DNA from: an uncultured virus (IMG/VR IMGVR_UViG_3300026254_000003)
Taxonomy: Duplodnaviria > Heunggongvirae > Uroviricota > Caudoviricetes
Length of the DNA stretch: 64,000 nt
Virus record (IMG/VR): IMGVR_UViG_3300026254_000003
Direction: 5' to 3' (one strand)
Part shown: one piece after another, positions 10,878-62,324 of the stretch
Numbering within the stretch: position 1 is the first letter of the stretch
Layout: the number at the start of each line of letters is the position of its first letter
Made by a program: the position numbers and the translations under genes
The notes under the pieces: generated by a model
Databases searched by the model: none
The model's input: the letters and a program-made list of their open reading frames with translations, nothing else
Told to the model about the DNA's origin: nothing

Positions 10878-11501
10878 TTATTTTGAGCGAGAGAAGTGCT
10901 TCGGCATGAGGATCGTACCATCTTCAAATTTTGCCTTGCAGATAGCGCCTGCCTGCTCGCACAATTCAACGTCAAACATTGACCAGTGGCATTGCTCAGC
11001 GCGAATGTTCATTTCTTGAGACAACCATAGATAGCCAATATTAAGACCGCACTGCTGACGCTTCATAAGGCGCATAAACCAGCTTTTATTGGCTTTGCGT
11101 GCCTCGCGAGTGGCCGCATCAGCCAGCGTGCCAAGCGGTATATCAGTGTGAGGATGAACACCTACGTAGGCACCGCATTCTTGATTTCGGCATAGGTAAA
11201 GGTAAGGCCACTCTCCATAGCTACGCTTATAAACGGTTTTATGCTCCACTAACTCGACATGCTCATGACCGCAGTAAGGGCATGTTTCAGGCACGGGAAC
11301 GCGGTGCTTTACACGCTTCAGTGAGCGACGGCTAATGTGCGGTAGTGGCGCAGGTGCAATAAGCTTCGCTTCGCTGGTGGCGCGAGGATCTATGCCCGAA
11401 ATGATAGTCACACCTGTATCAACAGGTTGATTGGAGTCAATGTTTTCTTGTGGTGACGTTTTACCGTTAACAAGTTGCGCAAGCGCTTGAAATAGTGCCA
11501 T
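10878..11501 (-). CDS. DUF3268-like zinc-finger protein
   Basis: CPYCG...YLYLC..CGAYVGVHPHT..PLGTLAD motif typical of this phage-associated family. Confidence 0.75.
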   Translation of the reverse strand: MALFQALAQLVNGKTSPQENIDSNQPVDTGVTIISGIDPRATSEAKLIAPAPLPHISRRSLKRVKHRVPVPETCPYCGHEHVELVEHKTVYKRSYGEWPYLYLCRNQECGAYVGVHPHTDIPLGTLADAATREARKANKSWFMRLMKRQQCGLNIGYLWLSQEMNIRAEQCHWSMFDVELCEQAGAICKAKFEDGTILMPKHFSRSK

Positions 11502-11618
11502 GATGGTTACCCTGATGTGTTGTGCTGACAGGATCAGTATCGCAAAATCTGTGATAGTTGTCAATGGTTTTGGCAACAGTCGCTCACAATAATCATGTTT
11601 ACGACTGCCGCTTGGCGA

Positions 11619-14772: not shown

Positions 14773-15387
14773 TTATGCCTCGATAAGTTCATCAAGGCTC
14801 ATGTGCATGCAGCCGCCAAAGTATTCATGTAGGCGCGCTAACTCAGGGTATTTTTCTGCGTATTCAAGGTAAGCCGCTTCGCATTTTTTAACGGCAACTT
14901 TGAACTCTAGTACGTTACCCATCGCAAACTCGCGTGATGCTTTGTTATGCGCGACATAAATATCTGCGGCTTTTACCAATTCAGTCTCATAAGACTTGTC
15001 ATGGCAAATGGCTTCGATTTCGCTGCGCATGTAATCAGGAAGTTTGCTGAAAAGCAGTTTTTCGTTTTCAACTTCAAGGGCTTTCCACATATCGTAGAAC
15101 TCAGGTGAAGAGCGTTTGATAGGGGAAGGCAAATCCGTGGTTAGCGTTTCTTCACCGTCATGCAGGATAGCGTAAGATAGAAGCTTGCCTATGTCGATGG
15201 TTTTGCCAAACTCATGCTTAGAGATTAACCCTAAAAGCAGTGCTGTGATCGTGACTTCGGCAGTATGCTCTAGTACATTTTCGTTTTCGATAAGGTACAT
15301 GCGATTCCAGCGAGGAAGTAAACGCTGGCGAAACATTAGTGCCATGAATGCGTATTGTTTTGCGGTATCTGAAAGAGGTGTGTTCAT
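14773..15387 (-). CDS. yfbR: HD-domain 5'-deoxynucleotidase, YfbR-like
   Basis: RW..M....ENVLEH, ILHD.EE..T.DLPSPIK, VKAAD motifs of the YfbR family. Confidence 0.8.
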   Translation of the reverse strand: MNTPLSDTAKQYAFMALMFRQRLLPRWNRMYLIENENVLEHTAEVTITALLLGLISKHEFGKTIDIGKLLSYAILHDGEETLTTDLPSPIKRSSPEFYDMWKALEVENEKLLFSKLPDYMRSEIEAICHDKSYETELVKAADIYVAHNKASREFAMGNVLEFKVAVKKCEAAYLEYAEKYPELARLHEYFGGCMHMSLDELIEA

Positions 15388-28084: not shown

Positions 28085-28804
28085 TTACATACCGCAGGCG
28101 CTTTTCATTTTGTTGATAACGCGCAGTTCGTGAGGGAAATACTCAAGGGAGTACTTTTTCATAATGCCGTCAAACTCACCCAAATACTCACAGCGGTAAG
28201 GTTGATAGGGCGGCATCCAATCAGTCGGCCCTTTTGCCGATTTCTGCCTGTTTAATGATGCGCTAACAGGGAGAAGGTTGTCCATATCGTTGGCAAAAGC
28301 ACGCTTTTGAGCGGCGCTCCATTTATCACCACCGTGCGCATGCGCATAAGCAAGGGGCACAATGTGGTCAATATCAAGATCGTCGTCGTCATAATAGAAT
28401 TTGCCGGAGTAGACGCCATACCACTTCCCCCGTGTCACATAACATCGTTTGATAATGTTATTGTAAAGAACGGGGGTCGTTGAGTGAGCAATCAAGACCT
28501 CAGCGCGCGTGTTCTGACAATCATTATCGTCATCCACCCAGTGTTCCCATGCGTCGCGATCATAGCGTTCGCCTTGCGGCAGGTTGTCTTTCGGTTTGGT
28601 GCCGGTGTAATTGCGCGGTGCGCGTCCACCAGAATCAATACAGGCCTCCATGGTGGCATAGGCTGTGAAGTTCTTCGTTTTTTCATACCAGCTGCTGCTG
28701 GTGTCGTGGCAAATACCGCTACTGCTTTTCTTTACGACATCAACAGCGAAAGCCGATGTAGACAGAAAGACAGAAAACAGCAAGGTGACAAATGACGTAC
28801 GCAT
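28085..28804 (-). CDS. secreted HNH endonuclease (DUF1524-like)
   Basis: Signal peptide MRTSFVTLLFSVFLSTSAFA; LDIDHIVPL...FAND..NLLPV.ASLNRQKSAK.P..WMP motif. Confidence 0.85.
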   Translation of the reverse strand: MRTSFVTLLFSVFLSTSAFAVDVVKKSSSGICHDTSSSWYEKTKNFTAYATMEACIDSGGRAPRNYTGTKPKDNLPQGERYDRDAWEHWVDDDNDCQNTRAEVLIAHSTTPVLYNNIIKRCYVTRGKWYGVYSGKFYYDDDDLDIDHIVPLAYAHAHGGDKWSAAQKRAFANDMDNLLPVSASLNRQKSAKGPTDWMPPYQPYRCEYLGEFDGIMKKYSLEYFPHELRVINKMKSACGM

Positions 28805-28910
28805 AGTGTGTCCTTGTTGGTGATTATAACGTGGTGATGTTGGCAGCGTGTCATAACAGGCTGCCGTTTCGTGCAACGTACCTAAAAGTGAGAAGTGGCG
28901 AAAGTGCACC

Positions 28911-29396
28911 CTATATGGTGCATGCACCACCCGCACATCCGCCCTCTGCGGAAGCTAATTCGGCAAGAATTTCTTCTTCAGATCGGCCTCGTGCAGCGGC
29001 ACGCTCTGCCTCTGTCATCATTGACCCTGCGGTGCTGCGAGAAGCCGTCAAAAACGCCCCTTCGTTTATCCATTGCTCTACGATGATATCACGAATTTTT
29101 TCATCTGGCGTGATGCTGTGAAGTGACAGGGTTTCGATGATGGTCGCTTCAGCCGCACACACCACTGCTTGTTCATAAAACGACAATGGGCGACGAGTTT
29201 CTGTTAAGATGAAGTCAGGGTCAAGCTTGCCTACCTTCGTGATCACATCCTGCTTGCCCATATTGATGGTGGCTTGAAAGGCTGCGATTGCCGCAATACT
29301 GACAAGTGAAGCGATAGATACAGTATTTTTGTTCTGCTGAACAACGGTGTTCAAATCAGATACAACGGGCGCGAAAAGATTAAAGGTTTTGCTCAT
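28911..29396 (-). CDS. hypothetical protein with C-terminal CAGGAC
   Basis: 161 aa behind repeat 29410. Confidence 0.75.
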   Translation of the reverse strand: MSKTFNLFAPVVSDLNTVVQQNKNTVSIASLVSIAAIAAFQATINMGKQDVITKVGKLDPDFILTETRRPLSFYEQAVVCAAEATIIETLSLHSITPDEKIRDIIVEQWINEGAFLTASRSTAGSMMTEAERAAARGRSEEEILAELASAEGGCAGGACTI

Positions 29397-37376: not shown

Positions 37377-37548
37377 AATGTATTCCTGTGTTGTGTTGAC
37401 AAAAAGAAGTGTCTCACAGCCTGTGAGTGAAGTCAATTGTTTTGGTTTTGCGGCATCATAGCGAGGGCAACGCTCGCACTTTTATGTTGATTTAACGGCT
37501 TTATTTAGATATAATTGGCATAAATCGTCAACACACAGGGTTTACATA

Positions 37549-39720
37549 ATGACTCACCGTTATTACAGTCCATCGCAACTAAAAAAAATGTTTAATAGCT
37601 GCTGCTCGCGAAAGATGCAGGTCGCACTGAGTGCACCTAATTTCCCCAAGTGTATCATGCGGGATGTATTAGAAAGCGAGACACCGAGATTTGTGGCGGG
37701 GTACTACGCCAATGCTAAAAGTATTGAGAGTATGGCACAGATGCTCAATCACCCCGCATTTAGCGACAATGAGGTCAGCGAATTGCTGGCGCTTAATCCT
37801 GCGCTGGATGTGCTTTCACTGTACAGCGAGCGAGTGCCAGAGGCACTGTATAACCGTCTTCTCAATCGCGTTATTGATGGTGAGTATTCTGACGGAAATG
37901 TAAGTTTCATGGCGCAGAACATAGTCAATCATCGCGCATTCCCGTGGGAACGTGCTGATGCTATTATTGCAATGAATAATGCATCGCTGCTTGCTGAAAT
38001 GGGGCAAGCTGCGTCATGTGATGCTGTATTGAGCGATATCGTTGCTGCTGTTCCACGCGTTGAAGATAAGACGCTCCATACCAACATATACATCAAAGTG
38101 GCTGAAAACGCCGCATGTTCACGTTCGTTGTTTAATCGCCTGTTAGCGCTGGAAATAGAGCCTAATAGCACATGCCGGATACGCATTGCGTTGCTAGATA
38201 ATCACGAACATACGATGGAGCAATTTCGCGAAGTTTTAGCGTATGTGCAAAACAATGCCAATACAGACTGTCGAGCAAGGTATGTATCGGATGTGTACGA
38301 CGCCGCATTTAAAAACGCTGACATGAAGCAATCCGATTTTATTGAGCTGGTTAAGTGCGACGCCTCTCAATACGGTATTGATGAAGGTTTTCACCGGCTT
38401 AATTTCTCAGATGCGCAAGCGGAAGCGATGCTGTTGGAATACCAGGGCAGCTGTGACGCGTTGTGCTACGCCATTCTTGACCGCGTAGATACATTGTCAC
38501 CGGAGGTCGTTTCACAATTCATCGAGCGCGAGCCTGTTGACTCCTTATTAGTACGCAAGCTGCTAAGCAGTGGTAATGTCCCGTCGGGCATCTTGGATAT
38601 GCTGGCGTACGACCCCGATCACACTATCCAAATGCGTGTCGCGATGCACCCCAATGTCTCAGACAGCACGTTTAAGTGTCTCTACCGTGTACGTGAGAGC
38701 ATTATGAGTTCTAATAAGGATTATGATAAAACACTCTTCAATGAAAGCCCCGCGTTCGCGTTGCTTACGTCATTAAAGAACTACCTCATCTTGCATAATG
38801 ATTACGGGTATGATCTGTTTGACTTCAAGAGTGTTAATTCGCCCAAGGCGATGACCAAAATGCTCATTGGTTCAAAACACCCTCAAGAGGTGCAGTTCTT
38901 GTTCGACAGTCAAGAGGCGGAGTCCTTGACCGCACTAAGCGCATTGCAGAGCGTGTTTACCAATTCACGTGGCAAACTCGACCGTCACGGATACATTCAG
39001 TTTCTTGCGCAGATTAATAGTGCATTAGGCACAGGTAAACAGGCGCAGAAGCGCGCAGGGCTTGCCATTGATGCGCCGTCACTACGCACCTGTTTGGCTT
39101 TTTTGTCACACGATGAAATGGTAGCCGTTGTGATGGATAACGCCATTACCGAAGCGCGAGATGTGTTTCGTATGTTAGCAACGCTCATTGCACGAGATTG
39201 CCCTGATGAAAGCGCCAAACAGTGTGCGTTGGTGCGTAAATGGCTTGCGTCTAAGAAAGACTACGGTGAAGCATTTCATAGCTACTTAAGCAACAAGCAG
39301 CAACGTGACTTCTCAATCAGTACCGTCAATGCGCGTTTCTATCAGGCCGATGCTATTGCGCAGCTTGACACTATCACTGAAAGCCTCCCGTCACACGTCA
39401 CACTAACACTGCCGGAGGACACAAAAGCCCTCCGTGCATTAGGTCGTGCTCAACATCACTGTGTAGGCACACGCTACTATGCTGACCGTTGTACGGATGG
39501 CTCAGCGGTGATTTTCGCCCTGTCTACAGGTAATAGGTCTGATGAAACGTTCACCTATCAATTTGAACGCAGTTCGGGACGATTGGCGCAAGCTAAAGGG
39601 TTTTCCAATAGTGACACACCGCCAGAGCTTAATAGCGTGGCGTACGAGGTGTTTAACGCCATTAAAGACGCGTGTGAGGCGGCACGTGAGCAAGCGGCCT
39701 TGCCACAAGAGAATGAATAG
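37549..39720 (+). CDS. large helical-repeat protein with C-terminal PcfJ-like domain
   Basis: 723 aa; LPED..AL...G..QHHCVG..Y....DG...IF.L, then QAKGF.N; LRV/HEAT-like L..LA.DP...I...VA.HPN segment. Confidence 0.7.
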   Translation: MTHRYYSPSQLKKMFNSCCSRKMQVALSAPNFPKCIMRDVLESETPRFVAGYYANAKSIESMAQMLNHPAFSDNEVSELLALNPALDVLSLYSERVPEALYNRLLNRVIDGEYSDGNVSFMAQNIVNHRAFPWERADAIIAMNNASLLAEMGQAASCDAVLSDIVAAVPRVEDKTLHTNIYIKVAENAACSRSLFNRLLALEIEPNSTCRIRIALLDNHEHTMEQFREVLAYVQNNANTDCRARYVSDVYDAAFKNADMKQSDFIELVKCDASQYGIDEGFHRLNFSDAQAEAMLLEYQGSCDALCYAILDRVDTLSPEVVSQFIEREPVDSLLVRKLLSSGNVPSGILDMLAYDPDHTIQMRVAMHPNVSDSTFKCLYRVRESIMSSNKDYDKTLFNESPAFALLTSLKNYLILHNDYGYDLFDFKSVNSPKAMTKMLIGSKHPQEVQFLFDSQEAESLTALSALQSVFTNSRGKLDRHGYIQFLAQINSALGTGKQAQKRAGLAIDAPSLRTCLAFLSHDEMVAVVMDNAITEARDVFRMLATLIARDCPDESAKQCALVRKWLASKKDYGEAFHSYLSNKQQRDFSISTVNARFYQADAIAQLDTITESLPSHVTLTLPEDTKALRALGRAQHHCVGTRYYADRCTDGSAVIFALSTGNRSDETFTYQFERSSGRLAQAKGFSNSDTPPELNSVAYEVFNAIKDACEAAREQAALPQENE

Positions 39721-41008: not shown

Positions 41009-41512
41009 TTATGACGCCTTGCTACACAGCGACTGAGAGAGCGCCTGTTCTGCGTTGACGATATCATCAAGCGCCTTTTGAGCGGCGTTGACTTCAGCGG
41101 TCTTTTCTTCTTTGAGTTTCTGAATATCCTCAGCATACACACTCAACGCATACGCACGGCCTTCTTCATTAAGAAAATCCCACAGCGAGAAGATAGTCAC
41201 GTAGTCATTGTAGACACTATTCAACCTTGCGCCTTCTACTTGGATTTTGCTGAGGTATTCTACGCCACCTGCACCAAGAGGGAAAGCGCCGTCAATCTGA
41301 ATCCCGTACTCGGCATTATAATAACACGACCATCCATTCCCTTTGCCTAGAAAACTTTCAGGTGTTGTGAAGCTGATATCCAAGAAAGATAAAAGCGACG
41401 ACATTTTAAGTCGATTTTCGCTGCGGTAGCTTATCTTATCTTTGTCTAACTGAGCAGCAAGATTTTTAATCGCCGGTGGCAGTTCAAATCGTGGTGATAC
41501 ATTCTTTTTCAT
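41009..41512 (-). CDS. hypothetical protein
   Basis: 167 aa behind repeat 41530. Confidence 0.8.
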   Translation of the reverse strand: MKKNVSPRFELPPAIKNLAAQLDKDKISYRSENRLKMSSLLSFLDISFTTPESFLGKGNGWSCYYNAEYGIQIDGAFPLGAGGVEYLSKIQVEGARLNSVYNDYVTIFSLWDFLNEEGRAYALSVYAEDIQKLKEEKTAEVNAAQKALDDIVNAEQALSQSLCSKAS

Positions 41513-41626
41513 GAGCGCGCTCTCTGTGTTGTTGTGTTGACAAGGTTAGTATCTCAGATGCTGAGAGCGTTGTCAATGGGTTTGACCTCGCACACGCAAG
41601 GCCAATGTCAGAAATAGCGATTGACG

Positions 41627-41971
41627 TTAGCTGCCAAGGTAGGTGCGCAGTGCGCGTTTGACGTCATTGGCATAGCTAGACGCTTCGCTTTCAGCCGCAT
41701 TTTTTTCTTGCTCTGCCTCCTCCGCTTCCTCGCTCTCCATGTCAGCGTTGTAGTAGGTGTCTTCAGCGAGTTTAAGTTCGCCTACGGCATGCGCCCAATT
41801 TTCATATGCCGAAAGAAGCTCATCGGCGTCCGCGTCCTCAGAGACATTGCGCTCTCCCATAGACTCACCCACGAGTGTTTTCACGAGTGTGGTGTCAGGC
41901 TGATGGTTCGCTAGCGAGTCTAACACGGTGGACTCAAGCTCTGAAGTCGATGGTGATTGTTCGTTGCTCAT
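41627..41971 (-). CDS. small acidic helical protein
   Basis: Start MSNEQSP after repeat 41990. Confidence 0.8.
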   Translation of the reverse strand: MSNEQSPSTSELESTVLDSLANHQPDTTLVKTLVGESMGERNVSEDADADELLSAYENWAHAVGELKLAEDTYYNADMESEEAEEAEQEKNAAESEASSYANDVKRALRTYLGS

Positions 41972-42137
41972 AGTGAGGCTTCTCTCTGTTGTTGTGTTGA
42001 CAGGATAAGTGTCGCAAAAACTGAGAGCGTTGTCAATAATTTTGTGCACAGTGGTTGATTATTAAACGACGAAACCGCCAGAGGGGGAAGCAAAAAAAGG
42101 CGCAGTGCGCCTTTCAAATGGATGTTGTCACAACGTG

Positions 42138-42728
42138 TCATTCCCATTCTGATTGCGTCAGTATCATGGTAATGATCGCATCCCCATCATCATGGCGAGC
42201 CATCACATCGTCATGCCATGCCACAATGTCGTCGCGACCCACTTCTTTGACCCGTGCCAGCCACGTTTCTCTCACCTTGCCTTCAGGGGCTTCGTCAGGG
42301 TAAGGCGCAATCAAATCCTCTGGCGTGTCACCGTTGTTGACTAAGTCGCGTAGCACCACGCCCTCTTTAGCAAAATGAATGCGGCTTATGACGTTGGCGT
42401 ATATCGTGACTAAATCAATAGTGTAACCCAGGGTTTTAAGTAACGCATTCGCGTCCTCTAGCTCAGCCTGACTGTACTCAGGTGGTAGGGCAGCAAATGA
42501 GCGAGCGCAGGTGCGGAACTGAACCGCCATGGGGATAACGGCATTAACATCCGCGGCACCACCCGCATTGGCTTCAAGTATGGCGGCGATATTCGCCTCA
42601 AGGGTTTCTGCATCGCACAGCTCGTCAAACGCGACCAGTAACAACGAAACAAACGCAGTGCTTTTGCCATTGATGCCAGAGCGTAGCGCATCAAGGTATT
42701 CTTCAGATAGTGGAACAGCGTTATTCAT
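42138..42728 (-). CDS. hypothetical protein
   Basis: 196 aa, AAGGA RBS. Confidence 0.75.
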   Translation of the reverse strand: MNNAVPLSEEYLDALRSGINGKSTAFVSLLLVAFDELCDAETLEANIAAILEANAGGAADVNAVIPMAVQFRTCARSFAALPPEYSQAELEDANALLKTLGYTIDLVTIYANVISRIHFAKEGVVLRDLVNNGDTPEDLIAPYPDEAPEGKVRETWLARVKEVGRDDIVAWHDDVMARHDDGDAIITMILTQSEWE

Positions 42729-42779
42729 GTTATGAATTCCTTTACATGGGTGTGCGCCACAATGGGCGCACAGGCGCAG

Positions 42780-42971
42780 TTAACCGTTGTCGGATACAGG
42801 GGCGCTTTGCACAAGCTCATTAAGATCAGCCATAAGCTGTGAGACTGCCTGAGACACTTCGTACGATTTTGGGTTAGACTCATCAAGCGCATTGATGATT
42901 TTACGTTTAAGCTTGCCTGCTTCGCTCGCGACCTCGCGAACTAATTGAATTTTCTTTTCTGACATTGTCAT
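42780..42971 (-). CDS. small hypothetical protein
   Basis: GGAG RBS after repeat 42979. Confidence 0.7.
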   Translation of the reverse strand: MTMSEKKIQLVREVASEAGKLKRKIINALDESNPKSYEVSQAVSQLMADLNELVQSAPVSDNG

Positions 42972-43068
42972 TCTCCGTTGTTGTGTTGACCAGGTGAGCA
43001 TCTCAAATTATGCGTGCGTTGTCAATGTTTTTCTCATTAAATTGAAAATAATCAAATTTAACAGGCGC

Positions 43069-43260
43069 AAAAAAGCCCGCCAGCATAACCTGGTACGGGC
43101 GTTGTCGTCACAACAATGTGAGGGTCGGCGGCGAGAAGGCGTCAACACAACAGGCCGCCGACGTAAAGGGTGCCCGGCGAAGGCGTTTTACGTCAACAAA
43201 ACAACAGGTGCCGGGACTTTAAGTTCAATACTGATGGTTGACGCATCAGGGCGCATTATC
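43069..43260 (-). ncRNA. Putative multi-hairpin RNA (3' UTR or sRNA) with loops antisense to the shared cassette leader, ending in an intrinsic terminator
   Basis: GC stems 43124-43132/43154-43162 and 43173-43178/43210-43215 enclose GTCAACACAACAG and GTCAACAAAACAACAGG on the plus strand; terminator 43069-43100 is oriented for the minus strand. Confidence 0.55.
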
Positions 43261-43261
43261 C

Positions 43262-43630
43262 TTATCCTTGATTCATTAGAATGGTTGCCAAGGCACCTTC
43301 GTATTCGGATAAGTAATCGCTCTCAGGGTTAGTGGCTAAGACGAGTGTAAGCACAATGATAAGGCTATCTCGCATCTGACCTACTAACTTATAGTTCATG
43401 TTACCTAACGGCTGGCTCGCAATATGATAGAGCAGGGAGGTTTTGGCGATGTACTCACTGCCGCAGACCCCGTTTTCAGCATTAAGTTTTTGTTCCATTT
43501 TGAGCACATCATCAAGCTTCATCGCCAATAGCGACGATTGCGCATTCAGTTTATCTCGCAGCGCTGTCCACAGTTTCCCCACGTTAACACGGTTTGTTTT
43601 TTGTTTATTGTTCGTTGATGCGTGAGACAT
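43262..43630 (-). CDS. hypothetical protein upstream of the putative antisense RNA
   Basis: 122 aa, AGGAG RBS. Confidence 0.75.
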   Translation of the reverse strand: MSHASTNNKQKTNRVNVGKLWTALRDKLNAQSSLLAMKLDDVLKMEQKLNAENGVCGSEYIAKTSLLYHIASQPLGNMNYKLVGQMRDSLIIVLTLVLATNPESDYLSEYEGALATILMNQG

Positions 43631-43702
43631 GATAGCTCCTGTTGAACGATGATTGTGTTAGGTCTTGATAGGGGTGGCAAATCGCCACCCGCATAGTGTT
43701 AC

Positions 43703-44194
43703 TTAAAGGGCCTCGTAGTTGATGACCAGCGCGCGCACTGCGTCATCATCCTCATCCCCCTCCTCAACTACGGCGTAGCCAGAGTCCGAGGATGGGCTGC
43801 GGTTAAGATAAACCTCATTAACCTCATTAAAACCAATCGCCTGAATCGTATTTCCGCGGTCTCCGTAGTTCCACGCAGCGACAACAAGGTCGTCATCATC
43901 AAGTCCCGTTAGGTTATCGAGAAAGTCGCCTACCGTCATATGTTCAGAGACGTCGCCCGGTTCGAAGAAGTGAATAGGGGTGTCGCTGTCATCTTCATCG
44001 CCCTCCTCAACCACGGCATACCCAGAGTCTGAGTAGCTCGATGAGGTGATAAAGCCAGATGTAAGGTCGCCCAGTGGTACTGCCTGCATCGTTCTAGCGC
44101 GGTCACCGAACGTGCATGTTGCTACAACAATGTCATCGCGATCAAAGTGAGATAGCGCGTCGATGCATTCAGCTTTGGTTAGGGTTGAAATCAT
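43703..44194 (-). CDS. very acidic protein with internal tandem duplication
   Basis: Two copies of DD.VVA....GDR..T.QA........SDSGYAVVEEGDEDD; repeat 44208 upstream. Confidence 0.85.
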   Translation of the reverse strand: MISTLTKAECIDALSHFDRDDIVVATCTFGDRARTMQAVPLGDLTSGFITSSSYSDSGYAVVEEGDEDDSDTPIHFFEPGDVSEHMTVGDFLDNLTGLDDDDLVVAAWNYGDRGNTIQAIGFNEVNEVYLNRSPSSDSGYAVVEEGDEDDDAVRALVINYEAL

Positions 44195-44312
44195 GGTGTT
44201 GCTCCGTTGTTGTGTTGACAGGGCTAGTGTCTCAAATGCTGTGTGTATTGTCAATGTTTTTTTATAAGCGTGGGGAGATTATTGTAGATAAATATCTCCC
44301 CGCTAACGATAA

Positions 44313-44663
44313 CTACATTGCTTCCACGGCGTTGCGCAAATCACGCAGCGCATCAGCAAGCTCGCCCTGAGTAAACTCTACTGCTTCGTGAGCGTCATCG
44401 ATATCATCAACATCGTCGTCACCCTCTTCCTCAGCAGCCTCAATTGCCTCTACGGTATTCATCGCATTGACCCACTCCATGAAGGTATCATCGACGCGTT
44501 TAATGTTTACCGCAAGGTTTTCAAGAGAGGCCTCTACCGCTTCTTTGAACAGTGCATCCACGCCCGCAATGTTTGTGCTGTCGTCGTTGTTGTCCATACG
44601 CGCTTGAATGCTTGCGCATGAAGCCAAGATTGCTGTTTTAAGTGAGGCAGTCAGTGTTGACAT
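44313..44663 (-). CDS. small acidic helical protein
   Basis: 116 aa, GGAG RBS, repeat 44679. Confidence 0.8.
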   Translation of the reverse strand: MSTLTASLKTAILASCASIQARMDNNDDSTNIAGVDALFKEAVEASLENLAVNIKRVDDTFMEWVNAMNTVEAIEAAEEEGDDDVDDIDDAHEAVEFTQGELADALRDLRNAVEAM

Positions 44664-45023
44664 AAAGTGTTACTCCGTTGTTGTGTTGACAGGATTAGTA
44701 TCGCAAAACCTGTGTTTATTGTCAACGTTTTTTTCATGTTTTCCTAAAAAAACAGCGAAAGTCAAAACTTAATTTATTATGCCGCGTACTTAGCGGCAAT
44801 CGTTTGCAGCCACGTTACGTCATAGCGCTCTGCTGGCACCCACTCTTGGTCGTTTTCAGACCACCATTCACCTTGGGCATTGACCCAAAACAAGTCTCTG
44901 CATTTGCTGTCATCTTGCTTCGGCCCCTTTAGGACCCAAATCAAAGTTAACCATTATATATTTCCTTGTTGTTTACGTATTGCGTGACAGTGAACGTGCC
45001 ACGCAAGCGCCGTGTGCGTTTAT

Positions 45024-46418
45024 CTAATGTTGCCGAGAAAACCCCGTGATCAGAACGAAGTGATGTCGCGGGGATGAATCGGTAAATTCAGGTTGACAGC
45101 TCTACTATATACAGTAATCTATACAGTATATGAAAAAGACGCTCAGATACAATTACAGGCTTAAGCCAACGCTGGAGCAGGAGGCTAGACTCATTGAGTT
45201 TGGTGCAACAGCCCGTGGCATTTGGAACCTGCTGTTGTCTGAAACAATGCGTCGATACGAGTACGATAAGACGTTCTTGTTTTACAGGGATATGGCTTCA
45301 TTGCTCAAAGAACTAAAGTCTTTTGATGAGTTTGCTTGGGTAAAGGCGTTTGACTCAGCAGCAGCCCAGCAAGTCGCAAGAGATCTGGAAACAGCACTAA
45401 AAAACGCCTTTTCAAAAGGTCGGTTGCAACGTTTTCCAAAACATAAAGTCTCTTATAAGCGAAAGAAGCTTCACAATGACAGCTTTCGAGCGGTGAACAA
45501 TTCCAATTGCATACGCATTGAAAATGACTCTATTAGCATCCCAAAAGTGGGTAAAATACCCATCATCTTACACCGCGACTTAGTGAGCCAAATTAAGACC
45601 GTTACTGTCCAGTATCGTCATGGAAAATGGGAATGCAGCATTACGCAAGAAGTGGAATGTAAAGCCGCTAAAAAACTACTGGAAAGCATCACAGGTTTTG
45701 ATATTAACTCTAAGCAAACGGTAGTGGGCTCAAATGGCTTTACTGCCAACAACCCGAAGTTCTTAAAACAATCAAAAGAGAAATTAAGCCACTTGCAACG
45801 CCAGCTTGCAAGGCGAAAGAAAGGGTCTAATCGCTGGCAAAAGACCAAGCAACGCATCAATAAGCTTCACGGCAAAATCTCACGGCAAAGACTCGACTTT
45901 GCACATCAAGTGTCACGACAGATAGCCAATGAAACTGATATTCTGGTGTTTGAGGATTTGAATGTGAAAGCGATGCAAAAGTTCAACGGCAGTATGGTGG
46001 CTGACAATGTGATGGGCTTAATTACCCAGCTCTCGAAATACAAGGCTGAGTTGGAAGGTAAGCTCTATCACGAAATTGGTCGCTTTGAAAAATCCACAGG
46101 GATTTGTTCAGAATGCGGCCAACGCCATGTTTTAACATTGAGCGATAGATATTTCACCTGTACTGCTTGCGGAACGTATCAAAACCGCGACTTCTCAGCG
46201 GCTAAAAGCATAGCAAAAACAGGTGAGACAGACTTAATTGCGGCTGGGATCGTCGCAAGGGTAATCCCCATATCTCAGCAGAAATCAGCTAGTAAAGCGA
46301 AAGCCTTCGAGCTATCGAAGTTTGCTGTTGGATCTGAGAAAAAAGAAGCGGCCTAGCTTCAAAGCTAGACTGTAGAAGCCCAGTGATCAGAGCGAAGCGA
46401 TGTCGCTGGGTAGTTCAC
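45024..46418 (+). mobile_element. IS200/IS605-family element carrying tnpB only (IS1341-like, non-autonomous)
   Basis: Homologous subterminal hairpins 45042-45073 and 46379-46410 (gtgatcaga.cgaag.gatgtcgc); right end ...GGGTAGTTCAC; candidate target motif TTTAT at 45019-45023; no tnpA. Confidence 0.8.
45130..46356 (+). CDS. tnpB: RNA-guided endonuclease TnpB
   Basis: N-terminal YRLKPT.EQ...L....G..R..WN; RuvC D (GFDIN), E (VFEDL), D (NRDFSAAKSI); CSECG/CTACG zinc finger. Confidence 0.93.
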   Translation: MKKTLRYNYRLKPTLEQEARLIEFGATARGIWNLLLSETMRRYEYDKTFLFYRDMASLLKELKSFDEFAWVKAFDSAAAQQVARDLETALKNAFSKGRLQRFPKHKVSYKRKKLHNDSFRAVNNSNCIRIENDSISIPKVGKIPIILHRDLVSQIKTVTVQYRHGKWECSITQEVECKAAKKLLESITGFDINSKQTVVGSNGFTANNPKFLKQSKEKLSHLQRQLARRKKGSNRWQKTKQRINKLHGKISRQRLDFAHQVSRQIANETDILVFEDLNVKAMQKFNGSMVADNVMGLITQLSKYKAELEGKLYHEIGRFEKSTGICSECGQRHVLTLSDRYFTCTACGTYQNRDFSAAKSIAKTGETDLIAAGIVARVIPISQQKSASKAKAFELSKFAVGSEKKEAA

Positions 46419-47386
46419 GCCAAGCCAGTAAATGCCTGACGTCGAAGGTCGTCCTCATGGAGGTGTATGCCGCCGCCAAAGCAGGGTGCGTCGTTGTGCG
46501 CCAAGATGAACATCATCGATGCCGGAGAAAAATGCAGTGTGTACCCATCCAGTAACGTATAGATATGCATGCCGTCTCTGATTGAAAGTGGCGCGAGTGG
46601 TAGCAATGCGGCTGGTAGTGGAACGGTGATTGTCCCCTCCAGCACCCCCTCTTCAAGAAAGACGGTCAGGAGGTCTAGCTCGCTATCAACGACATCCTGG
46701 GAAACCGAGAATATCGCCATATCAGAGAGCGTGTAGCGTTTCATTACCTCGTCGCTATCCAGTGCAAAGGGGATGCCGGCGCTTGTGGTTAAAATCATTG
46801 ATTCGAGCAAGGTGAATGCCTGTGACGCCATTGCGCTGTCTGACATTTTAATGTCATCAAACAGGCCATCTCTTGACATCGATAACACAACCGCAGGCGC
46901 ATCGCTTTTTGACGTGATGCAGGTTGCGAGATCTTCATCACTGGCAGGGTAGGCCTCATCCATAGCAAGGAGCTCAAAACGTTCATCAATGCGATCATGT
47001 TCGAAATCGTTGTCCTCTAGGGCGATGGCATCAAGTACAGAAAAGTGGACGCCAACTTCAACCAAATAGTCGGGTGCATAGTCTTCGTGTTTGTTTTTGT
47101 GTAAAAACTCCCAGCGACGAACATGCGTCACACTATTGTAATGCGCGAACATTTCATGGGTGTTATTAAAGCCAAGCAGGGTGGCTGTGATGTCGTCGGC
47201 GACGCGCACGTCGAGCTTGCTCTCGCCTTTTGAACCGATGGCTTTGCTCATTGCAGCCTGGACAGCAGGATCATTAATGGTGTGTGATAGCAGGACAGCA
47301 AGCTTATTCGGGGAGAATGATTCTCGCAGTGAGTCTCGTAGCCCCTGCATGTGTGATTTAGACACGATCTGTTGACGTAATGACAT
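46415..47386 (-). CDS. hypothetical protein, long-leader class
   Basis: MSLRQQ start, GAGGA RBS; promoter TTGACT...TATATT near 47554-47582. Confidence 0.8.
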   Translation of the reverse strand: MSLRQQIVSKSHMQGLRDSLRESFSPNKLAVLLSHTINDPAVQAAMSKAIGSKGESKLDVRVADDITATLLGFNNTHEMFAHYNSVTHVRRWEFLHKNKHEDYAPDYLVEVGVHFSVLDAIALEDNDFEHDRIDERFELLAMDEAYPASDEDLATCITSKSDAPAVVLSMSRDGLFDDIKMSDSAMASQAFTLLESMILTTSAGIPFALDSDEVMKRYTLSDMAIFSVSQDVVDSELDLLTVFLEEGVLEGTITVPLPAALLPLAPLSIRDGMHIYTLLDGYTLHFSPASMMFILAHNDAPCFGGGIHLHEDDLRRQAFTGLA

Positions 47387-48761: not shown

Positions 48762-48887
48762 GGTGTTTTATCCTGCTGCTGTGTTGACAAGGTTAGTATC
48801 TCAAAAACTGAGAGCGTTGTCAAATAAAAAGGCTATCACAAATAAAATAATCTGCTATTATTAACATCATGTTCACAAGGAGGTTGG

Positions 48888-49046
48888 ATGATGACTAACG
48901 GAATATATGGCGTCGTGTTCGGTGGTGCCGTGGCGCTGGGAATATCACTTATCGCTTTATTTTTACCCGAACTACAAACAGTAGCCCCTGTCGCACTTTC
49001 AGCGCTAGGTTTGGCTGTTGGGTATGCAGGGCGGCGTAACGTATAG
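48888..49046 (+). CDS. small 2-TM membrane protein (52 aa, not in ORF track)
   Basis: AAGGAGG RBS; MMTNGIYGVVFGGAVALGISLIALFLPELQTVAPVALSALGLAVGYAGRRNV. Confidence 0.7.
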   Translation: MMTNGIYGVVFGGAVALGISLIALFLPELQTVAPVALSALGLAVGYAGRRNV

Positions 49047-49065
49047 TTACGCCAACAATGTAGCG

Positions 49066-49470
49066 TTAGGCTGTCTCTTTGGCAGCCTCAGTGTCTTTAA
49101 GATAAGCCATCTGAGCCTCGCCTTTTTCACTGAGTGTGAGCCCACTCATTTCACACACGCGCGCAACGAGCTTCTCAACATCAGCGCTAGGCAGAGATAA
49201 GGACTCAAGCGTTTTAACACTAAAGCGTGCCGCTTCCTTTAATCCCATAGTGACACCTTTACCGCCATAGGCTTTAACAAAGCTGCCGTCGCGTGACTTA
49301 AGCTGCGCATTGGCTTCATAACGCTTGGGTGGCTTACCGCCACGGGCACGCGGAACGCTGCCATCATTAAATGCGACCTCTACCTCGATATAGGTAGGCA
49401 AGCCTTTGGTTAGCGGGCAGCTGTCTGATGTTAGGCAGTCGATACGTGCAATGACATTACGTCTATTCAT
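49066..49470 (-). CDS. hypothetical protein
   Basis: 134 aa behind repeat 49485. Confidence 0.8.
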   Translation of the reverse strand: MNRRNVIARIDCLTSDSCPLTKGLPTYIEVEVAFNDGSVPRARGGKPPKRYEANAQLKSRDGSFVKAYGGKGVTMGLKEAARFSVKTLESLSLPSADVEKLVARVCEMSGLTLSEKGEAQMAYLKDTEAAKETA

Positions 49471-50884: not shown

Positions 50885-51022
50885 CATCTCAATTTCATAC
50901 CTCGCCCCGTTTTTTCTGGGGCGAGTTTTACCCTCATAGCTCACACCAAAAACCTCAAAAAAGTTGACTTATGATGTTAATTTTAGTAAAATTGACTACG
51001 TCAACACAACGAGGTAACAGCC

Positions 51023-52578: not shown

Positions 52579-53199
52579 TTACATCATTTTGCAAATCATG
52601 GTCGCCCACGTTTCGAGGGCATAGTCGCCATTGAGCAGTTCATCAGGCGAAAAGAAGCCGAGAGACTCAAGCTCGTCTTCTTTGCTTTCTACCGTCATGG
52701 CATCAAGCTCTATCATCGTAACCAAGGCAACGTGTTTCGCATCAACACCGGTCTCATCAGCAGTGATCACTTTGTCCAACTTGGTTTGACTCACCACGTT
52801 GGCCCCATTCAATAAGACCTCTTCGTCAATTTCACGCGCAGTAGCGTTCTCAAGTGACTTTTCAAGATCAATGACACTTTTATCATACACTAGGTCGCCA
52901 AGGTCAAAATGACCGCCCACCACCACAGCAACCTTGTTATGAAGCCCCTTTTCACCGCCTTTTTCAGTGCGGCGATATGCCCAGATTTTGCCCTTGTGCG
53001 TAAACACCAGCATAGGCATAACTTGACGGAAGCGATAATCTCTTTCAAGCTCGTGGCGGCGTGCAATGATGATATCGCCTGGTTCTAGCGTGAAGTCGCA
53101 AAAACCATCTTCGCTGCGGTTTACAAAATGCATAGCGTCAACACACACAATGTGCGCAAGATGTTTTGGGTTAATGTTGTCAGTGCGTAGTTTAACCAT
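52579..53199 (-). CDS. Nudix-family phosphoesterase (COG4112/YmaB-like)
   Basis: E.D..FRQV.P.....YRR...GGE..LH.K....VGGH and Nudix-box ATAREIDEEV. Confidence 0.8.
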   Translation of the reverse strand: MVKLRTDNINPKHLAHIVCVDAMHFVNRSEDGFCDFTLEPGDIIIARRHELERDYRFRQVMPMLVFTHKGKIWAYRRTEKGGEKGLHNKVAVVVGGHFDLGDLVYDKSVIDLEKSLENATAREIDEEVLLNGANVVSQTKLDKVITADETGVDAKHVALVTMIELDAMTVESKEDELESLGFFSPDELLNGDYALETWATMICKMM

Positions 53200-60200: not shown

Positions 60201-60247
60201 TGTTGTGTTGACAGGATTAGTATCTCAAAAACTGAGAGTGTTGTCAA
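60201..60247 (-). promoter_or_regulatory. Representative copy of the repeat: sigma70-like promoter with extended -10 and shared leader
   Basis: Minus strand reads TTGACA acactctcagtttttga (17 nt) GATACT aatcct GTCAACACAACAGGAGAG, then ATG at 60190. Confidence 0.85.
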
Positions 60248-60271
60248 TAAGAAACCGACATATTGCTCGTA

Positions 60272-62238: not shown

Positions 62239-62324
62239 GTGTGCATTCCTGTTGTTGTGTTGACGGTTATTATATTAACAACAAACACAGCCTGTGTCAA
62301 CAAACACAGGCCACAAATTGATGG

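Follow-up and report, generated by a model that had tools for sequence, protein, structure and literature searches.

A hairpin module in the 3′UTR of an operon of an uncultured marine mobile element, a candidate GcvB-like antisense RNA against a leader shared by dozens of gene cassettes

The c4 antisense RNA of phages P1 and P7 is embedded in an operon and processed, and its exposed segments pair at the ribosome-binding site (RBS) of downstream phage genes. CpxQ and DapZ are base-pairing sRNAs derived from 3′UTRs and sharing the parental terminator. The sRNA GcvB is produced from a free-standing gene, and its seed lies in a linear region. According to excerpts of PMC3879156, ACA motifs adjoining the Shine–Dalgarno sequence (SD) act as translational enhancers, which GcvB covers to repress its targets. 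In Pasteurella, the GcvB targets have the consensus AACACAACAT, the core in E. coli and Salmonella being CACAACAT, and the GcvB seed is AUGUUGUGUU (excerpts of PMC5900567). SroC is an mRNA-derived RNA within the GcvB network (excerpts of PMC4474525). In T4-type phages, PeSL arrays associate strong sigma-70 promoters with stem-loops and recombine frequently (excerpts of PMC2839356 and PMC4122927). We describe here a locus that shares features with each of these systems.

The window, by which we mean the whole 64-kb stretch of DNA that was analysed (64,000 nucleotides), was a run of approximately 53 small gene cassettes, each with a sigma-70 promoter and the near-invariant leader GTCARCACARCA. 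Loci of a marine metagenome contig of 229,889 bp matched it at 100% identity in reverse orientation. Another contig, of 486 kb, was a 92–99% relative, and several Tara-type contigs were related as well. We call its source an uncultured marine giant mobile element, which may be a phage or a plasmid. Phage collections contained no near match to the window DNA, and the sole match in plasmid collections was a tnpB element. Almost all of the 106 window ORFs scanned (24 + 82) were orphans, and a 723-aa ORF had no protein match. Those with family matches were PcfJ-like, TnpB, GmrSD_C/HNH, DUF3268, YfbR-like and NUDIX, located as follows.

10878-11576, minus strand: ORF with a DUF3268 zinc-finger domain (family match)
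14773-15387, minus strand: YfbR-like 5′-deoxynucleotidase ORF (family match)
28085-28936, minus strand: GmrSD_C/HNH-like nuclease ORF (family match)
37549-39720, plus strand: PcfJ-like ORF (family match)
45093-46420, plus strand: tnpB-only IS200/IS605-type element, TnpB of 408 aa with OrfB_IS605 and Cas12f1-like TNB domains
52579-53199, minus strand: NUDIX ORF (family match)

No phage hallmark protein was present among the 24 + 82 window proteins or among 17 proteins from the neighbouring loci; these 17 contributed an SSB and contained no T4 core gene. Rfam and tRNA scans of the window yielded nothing, with 0 matches over the whole window at the gathering threshold. A search for the promoter-leader pattern gave 0 matches in the viral contig collection and 0 in the genome contig collection, and the literature matches listed for the leader string were all of an unrelated primer type.

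The 13-mer GTCAACACAACAG occurred 59 times in the window when up to two mismatches were allowed, for 2.24 occurrences expected, and none of 100 shuffles reached 59. By our own filters, 52 of these occurrences were minus-strand leaders linked to a promoter and one, at 51000, headed a plus-strand gene; the initial annotation was right in describing a leader common to dozens of transcription units. Promoter class 1 comprised 46 of the 52 minus-strand units and was made of TTGACAAC, a spacer and the extended -10 TGnGATACT. The class-1 -10 ended 6 nt (41/46) or 7 nt (5/46) upstream of the G in GTCAAC, and given this spacing that G is the predicted +1. The same leader was retained behind six promoters of different sequence and ahead of the plus-strand genes 51000 and 37527. 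Its persistence behind differing promoters suggests that the RNA itself is under selection.

Downstream of the leader, an SD and a start codon were reached within approximately 10–15 nt. The first 11 positions were near-invariant, with 20 variant cells in 53 filtered sequences, a set of 52 real leaders plus 3657+, a -35 region in reverse that contains no leader. Nineteen of the 20 variant cells were A>G or C>U and preserve the pairing with the anti-leader described below by wobble, these changes being also plain transitions and counted as cells rather than as independent events. Two to four ACA triplets were found within the first 16 nt in 51 of the 52 leaders, and the ACA-rich leader abutting the SD most likely works as a translational enhancer.

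The array resembles the PeSL arrays, as these are described in the excerpts, by its dozens of near-identical strong sigma-70 promoters, AT-rich upstream segments, stem-loops, small orphan genes and plastic region. The repeated sigma-70-like early promoters stood with stem-loops ahead of orphan genes, and terminator-like hairpins were visible upstream of several promoter-leader units. It differs from them by its leader, as the excerpts of the two reports describe no shared transcribed leader or anti-leader element (PMC2839356; PMC4122927). An inverted repeat CTCA-N3-8-TGAG was present between the -35 element and the -10 element in 19 of the 52 promoters, for example at 60212-60260 on the minus strand. 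It may be an operator for some regulator, and according to the same excerpts the stem-loops of PeSLs are most commonly placed there.

Stop codons were typically separated from the following -35 by approximately 0–60 nt. This distance reached 229 nt at the junction containing the gap 43069-43261, one of the 4 junctions among 52 that exceeded 150 nt. This gap was the only one of the 52 to possess anti-leader copies, and the only place in the 64-kb window with non-promoter leader copies in opposite orientation. Similarly, promoterless accumulations of leader 8-mers on the plus strand were seen only there in the 64 kb, and an exact 13-mer like that at 43141 on the plus strand would be expected by chance approximately 0.001 times in 64 kb. 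The other long junctions were the following.

1200-1365 (junction 1206-1362): strong 10-bp hairpin and possible mini-ORF (z = -2.68), no anti-leader
37443-37548: the PcfJ-like gene on the plus strand has its divergent promoter region here, no anti-leader
48825-49070 (junction 48831-49065): not unusually structured (z = -0.54), no anti-leader

The initial annotation had described the motif of the gap as opposite to all cassette leaders, which is too general since the plus-strand genes 51000 and 37527 have a plus-sense leader. In the minus-strand reading, this gap corresponds to the 3′UTR of a two-gene operon (genes A and B) and contains three anti-leader copies (H0, H1 and H2) and an additional hairpin, H3.

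43069-43100, minus strand only: intrinsic terminator, hairpin 43075-43100 followed by U6 (43069-43074), -15.3 kcal/mol, which ends the operon and the module
43104-43124, minus strand: H0, third anti-leader copy, minus RNA CCCUCACAUUGUUGUGACGAC, folding weakly
43124-43162, minus strand: H1, 21-nt loop on a perfect GC stem of 9 bp
43173-43215, minus strand: H2, 6-bp GC stem with a 31-nt loop (43179-43209)
43231-43249, minus strand: H3, 6-bp stem whose 7-nt loop, CGUCAAC, has the sense orientation of the leader 5′ end

H1 and H2 are the two GC-clamped stems with leader-like loops reported in the initial annotation, which both exist. The stem of H1 is made of GTCGGCGGC (43124-43132) and GCCGCCGAC (43154-43162), and its plus-strand loop is GAGAAGGCGTCAACACAACAG (43133-43153). 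In the minus RNA, the 5′ 13 nt of this loop, CUGUUGUGUUGAC, are the exact complement of GUCAACACAACAG, and the remainder is GCCUUCUC. The stem of H2 consists of CCCGGC (43173-43178) and GCCGGG (43210-43215), and its plus-strand loop contains GAAGGCGT...GTCAACAAAACAACAGG. The H2 anti-leader, CUGUUGUUUUGUUGAC, is located at 43192-43207, where an inner 5-bp helix leaves GUUGACGU exposed. The third copy, initially noticed at 43107, is real and longer than claimed: the plus-strand segment GTCACAACAATGTGAGGG (43107-43124) corresponds to the leader plus an SD-like GAGGG, so that the H0 layout in the minus RNA is an anti-SD-like CCCUCA followed by the anti-leader CAUUGUUGUGAC. An 8-bp alternative pairing of GACGUAAA with UUUACGUC, derived from a chance Rfam alignment, was rejected, its appearance by chance being about as probable as its absence.

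Both strands of the gap fold better than their shuffles, with z = -2.34 for the minus strand and -3.18 for the plus strand. The stems are all pure Watson–Crick and the structure itself is thus without strand information. It is the context, with the flanking genes, the U-run and the absence of an upstream plus-strand promoter, that indicates the minus strand. A search for a plus-strand promoter upstream of the gap found none, and the minus-strand orientation of the gene 43262-43630 and the minus-only polarity of the terminator were as initially described. The idea that the gap, transcribed from the plus strand, would act as a sponge has no support from this promoter search or from the terminator polarity. 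H1 and H2 do not have the form of intrinsic terminators, with loops of 21 and 31 nt and no U-run after either. The module lies on the minus strand between a stop codon (43262-43264) and the parental intrinsic terminator with its U-tail, and in this it resembles the 3′UTR-derived sRNAs SroC, CpxQ and DapZ. It would differ from SroC, which sponges an sRNA and is no mRNA repressor.

The initial annotation took the loop for the exact complement of the leader. This holds for the 13-mer GUCAACACAACAG; the full 13-mer was exact in only 7 of the 53 sequences passing the leader filter, the near-invariant part being positions 1-11. Compared with all the leaders, as had been suggested, the H1 loop gave duplexes of -19.6 kcal/mol on average with the 53 filtered sequences, versus -8.7 kcal/mol (sd 1.5) for 300 shuffled loops. 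The duplexes reached -15 kcal/mol or lower with 52 of the 53 sequences, the weakest being that with 3657+ (-10.8 kcal/mol), the reverse of a -35 region. The H2 loop matches with one mismatch a longer natural subtype of the leader, GUCARCACAACAACAGG, and its duplex with the leaders at 62264, 48788 and 13786 reached -24.5 kcal/mol. Two distinct natural subtypes of the leader are thus matched by H1 and H2 respectively, and H2 is no sloppy copy. The similarity between the gap and the cassettes starts at the predicted +1 and does not include the equally conserved promoter DNA. A target leader is present directly downstream of the module.

42978-43025, minus strand: promoter and leader belonging to the cassette that follows (gene 42780-42971)

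The loop part GCCUUC in the minus RNA (GAAGGC on the plus strand) was conserved in H1, in H2 and at a second locus described below. As a possible partner, GAAGGC occurred 15 times on the plus strand and 21 times on the minus strand of the window, for approximately 16 expected, and none of these sites was near a leader. The 10-mer GCGTCAACAC of the H1 loop recurred at 53135-53145 (plus strand) inside the NUDIX gene 52579-53199, approximately 55 nt after the start. The NUDIX mRNA thus has an internal anti-leader-like UGUGUUGACGC, which may be due to chance.

The statement in the initial annotation that nothing similar has been described was too strong, as GcvB silences dozens of mRNAs via a nearly identical CA-rich site adjacent to the SD, according to the excerpts cited above. 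The leader of the element contains AACACAACA, which corresponds to 9 of the 10 bases of the GcvB target consensus given there, and the H1 anti-leader CUGUUGUGUUGAC contains UGUUGUGUU, corresponding to 9 of the 10 nt of the GcvB seed. Fifty-three window leaders have a CACAACA-type site complementary to the anti-leader. In both cases, as far as the excerpts go, a G/U-rich seed is opposed to a CA-rich SD-adjacent site of dozens of mRNAs. Unlike in GcvB, the seed is displayed here in hairpin loops within a 3′UTR, and the predicted targets are the cassette mRNAs of the element itself, with the site at their extreme 5′ end. The Rfam model of GcvB (RF00022) gave no match: cmscan of positions 42900-43700 at E up to 10 returned five chance-level matches, none of which was GcvB. 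By analogy, the system would work like GcvB and its regulon, without being a GcvB homologue by the Rfam model. The module is also similar to c4 in being an operon-embedded RNA with predicted pairing near the RBS of genes of the element. It differs in that c4 controls one operon in cis/trans for immunity, and not approximately 50 dispersed promoters.

The parent operon was organized as follows.

43262-43630, minus strand: gene B, orphan of 122 aa, of which the module is the 3′UTR
43703-44194, minus strand: gene A, orphan of 163 aa, first gene of the operon
44207-44254, minus strand: A-B operon promoter including the leader, with the -35 at 44249-44254 and the -10 at 44226-44231

The leader of the operon is GUCAACACAACAA (44207-44219), and the promoter 44226-44254 is the likely source of the module-carrying transcript; no internal minus-strand promoter was found within 43262-43630. 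Gene B had no Pfam or PHROG match and only seven homologues, six of them full-length at 87–98% identity. Gene A, for which Pfam and PHROG gave no family match either, is an internal duplication, each half of which ends in the acidic SDSGYAVVEEGDEDD. By its look, it resembles small acidic early proteins. The Atlas scores of 0.87 (gene B) and 0.83 were uninformative. Between the two genes, a perfect 7-bp GC hairpin (-14.5 kcal/mol) without U-run was observed at 43672-43690 (minus strand). A weak promoter-like site at 43652-43680 (minus strand; TTGCCA, 17 nt, CACAAT), upstream of gene B, overlaps this hairpin, and the leader of gene B is degenerate (GTTCAACAGGAG).

When the predicted 1154-nt A-B transcript was folded, 11 of the 13 leader positions paired with the 3′UTR with a probability of at least 0.90; the probabilities at the remaining positions were 0.64 (positions 4 and 5) and 0.36 (position 8). 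In the minimum free energy structure, nucleotides 1-3, 6-13 and 15-18 of the leader and SD pair with 43104-43122, in H0, and approximately 63% of the ensemble pairs the leader with the H2 sequence instead of H0. The cost of opening the loops was 3.5 kcal/mol for H1 and 5.7 kcal/mol for H2, so the loops are partly closed in the prediction. The H3 loop is complementary over 7–8 nt to GUUGACG(C) of the H1 and H2 loops, with duplexes of -13.1 and -11.6 kcal/mol, suggestive of a contact between loops inside the module or of a masked state. H3 and H0 may mask the H1 and H2 loops.

A relative of the locus, on a 4.9-kb contig approximately 95% identical (L037), allowed the conservation of the module to be compared with that of its flanking gene. 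One of 166 module positions (terminator, H0, H1, H2 and H3) was changed, versus 17 of the 369 positions of gene B (Fisher p = 0.017, for a single relative at approximately 95% identity and segments drawn after viewing the alignment). No difference was observed in the terminator (0/32), H1 (0/39), H2 (0/42, positions 43174-43215) or H3, and four changes clustered in the 13-nt linker between H2 and H3. In the adjoining promoter (42991-43040), 8 of 50 positions were changed and the leader was unchanged. Leader and loop were invariant among the relatives compared, and with an invariant leader there is no leader/anti-leader covariation among them. In 50 metagenome loci (265,537 bases, overlapping), no anti-leader module was found besides the copy in L037. 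The loop 19-mer had one match each in the viral and genome contig collections, both of them stemless and chance-like.

Among 24 public runs listed, 20 contained the stretch or part of it, and six of those were RNA libraries. Four RNA runs (X15, X16, X17 and X19) were examined as contigs, in which strand and ends are not visible. In three of the four, from three studies, contigs of 8.6–17.8 kb crossed the gap at approximately 95% identity; these contigs also span plus-strand genes and may include DNA carry-over. In the X15 run, positions 42934-43184 were not covered and adapter-bearing contig ends were present at 43345 and 44202, contigs being unable to show RNA ends. A second contig of the X16 run contained two copies of the 21-nt H1 loop, separated by 29 nt. 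The first loop copy was flanked by GCTGCACGCT and AGCGTGCAGC, which as read by eye form a perfect 10-bp stem unlike that of H1; this stem swap is one case, and the 3′ arm is visible for the first loop copy only. A loop that is kept while its stem is replaced is the mark of a hairpin existing for loop display.

No indel within the hairpin module was reported for any of the four RNA runs. The X16 and X17 contigs were devoid of 6 nt at 43256-43261, corresponding to one CCTTAT/CCTTGA repeat unit after the stop codon of gene B, and this unit was kept in X19 and L037. The X17 contig spanned positions 41500-44700 at a word depth of approximately 1678, well beyond that of the other runs. The X17 sample contained the element, or a 95% relative, in great abundance, as RNA or DNA.

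We propose that the gap encodes a 3′UTR-borne, GcvB-like antisense RNA directed against an ACA-rich translational enhancer, acting in trans on the cassettes and in cis on its own operon, a reading to which we give even chances. In this model, transcription of the minus strand would start at the early-type promoter 44226-44254 and end at the terminator 43069-43100. The transcript would carry three G/U-rich anti-leader elements, of which H1 and H2 would be displayed in large loops and H0, nearly unstructured, would add an anti-SD. The anti-leaders would pair with the first 11–17 nt of the element mRNAs, block the loading of ribosomes and possibly change mRNA decay, in the manner of GcvB at CA-rich sites that are nearly the same. 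Approximately 50 cassette mRNAs of the window would be acted on in trans, and the module's own mRNA in cis, and a folded 3′ fragment, if released in stable form and outliving the mRNAs, would constitute a delayed brake. Hfq may be involved, the terminator with its U6 tail being the only Hfq-related feature visible in the module. The minus-strand reading fits the position in a 3′UTR, the minus-only terminator, the complementarity anchored at the +1, the loop retention and a conservation above that of the flanking gene. The initial proposal of one antisense RNA for the whole regulon is partly supported: the minus-strand antisense reading agrees with the checks, and silencing of the whole regulon would face a problem of stoichiometry. 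A single module with the same class of promoter as its approximately 50 targets would matter only if it were far more stable or multicopy.

The pairing of the leader with the 3′UTR in the fold of the whole 1154-nt A-B transcript, and the existence of such a module in only one of the 52 junctions, would also be expected if the 3′UTR folded onto the leader and SD of its own operon and limited or stabilised this one transcript, with no role elsewhere. We hold this to be decidedly unlikely. An equal pairing energy is open to every other leader, H1 and H2 match leader subtypes other than that of the operon, a second locus with the same loops exists in X16, and long-range folds of 1-kb mRNAs are unreliable and would be disrupted by ribosomes. 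The same second locus, with its identical loop in an unrelated stem, and the hairpins more conserved than coding DNA in L037 speak against the explanation without any dedicated function. The hairpins would then be extra attenuator or stabiliser stem-loops at a PeSL-like junction, and the inverted leader pieces leftovers of recombination, which is frequent in PeSL arrays according to the excerpts (PMC2839356; PMC4122927), arrays that the window array looks like. The similarity stops exactly at the leader, without promoter DNA, the three copies are matched to different leader subtypes, and loops of 21–31 nt make poor terminators, neither hairpin having a U-run. This explanation consequently appears unlikely to us.

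Two other readings assign the loops a different partner. A loop-recognising factor could bind the hairpins in the form of RNA, extruded DNA or single-stranded DNA; this factor could be a regulator that binds the leader, in the case of plus-strand use, or else a protein reading GUUGACG...GCCUUC. The conservation of GCCUUC/GAAGGC in H1, H2 and the second locus, without RNA partner, speaks for such a protein-binding site or decoy, as do stems that are perfect Watson–Crick on both strands and the z of -3.18 for the plus-strand fold. We nevertheless consider it quite unlikely, given that no plus-strand promoter was found, that the terminator polarity and the flanking genes indicate the minus strand, that a double-stranded DNA operator does not need stems that are replaced and yet complementary, and that genes A and B bear no hint of nucleic-acid binding. 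Alternatively, the loops could mimic GcvB and target host mRNAs with CACAACA-type sites, for example those of amino-acid transporters. The loop contains UGUUGUGUU, 9 of the 10 nt of the GcvB seed given in the excerpts, and GcvB was reported in a marine Vibrio (excerpts of PMC9409037). The complementarity reaches the GUC at the +1 of the element's own leaders, outside the GcvB consensus, and Rfam gives no GcvB match. We regard a host-directed mimic as very unlikely.

If the preferred reading of a GcvB-like antisense RNA is true, dozens of genes under separate promoters are coordinated post-transcriptionally in a mobile element by one 5′ tag and one antisense module. This would be a compact means to time or cap an entire accessory regulon, in which the logic of the CA-rich enhancer and G/U seed of GcvB was adopted, or reinvented, by mobile DNA. 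It is conceivable, and in our opinion improbable, that the whole regulon is built on this logic. The cassette leaders would be ACA enhancers that listen to, and titrate, a host sRNA reporting amino-acid status; the element's own loop-displayed seed mimic, accumulating as a stable fragment of a 3′UTR, would shut approximately 50–100 cassettes at once and may reach the host targets of GcvB.

The tnpB element at 45093-46420 is a possible clue to the host. Its DNA is 81% identical to elements on two Pseudoalteromonas plasmids, where the copies adjoin a tnpA gene, none being seen in the window. In the 486-kb relative, the flanking loci lie approximately 1200 bp closer to each other, which would be compatible with the element being missing there.
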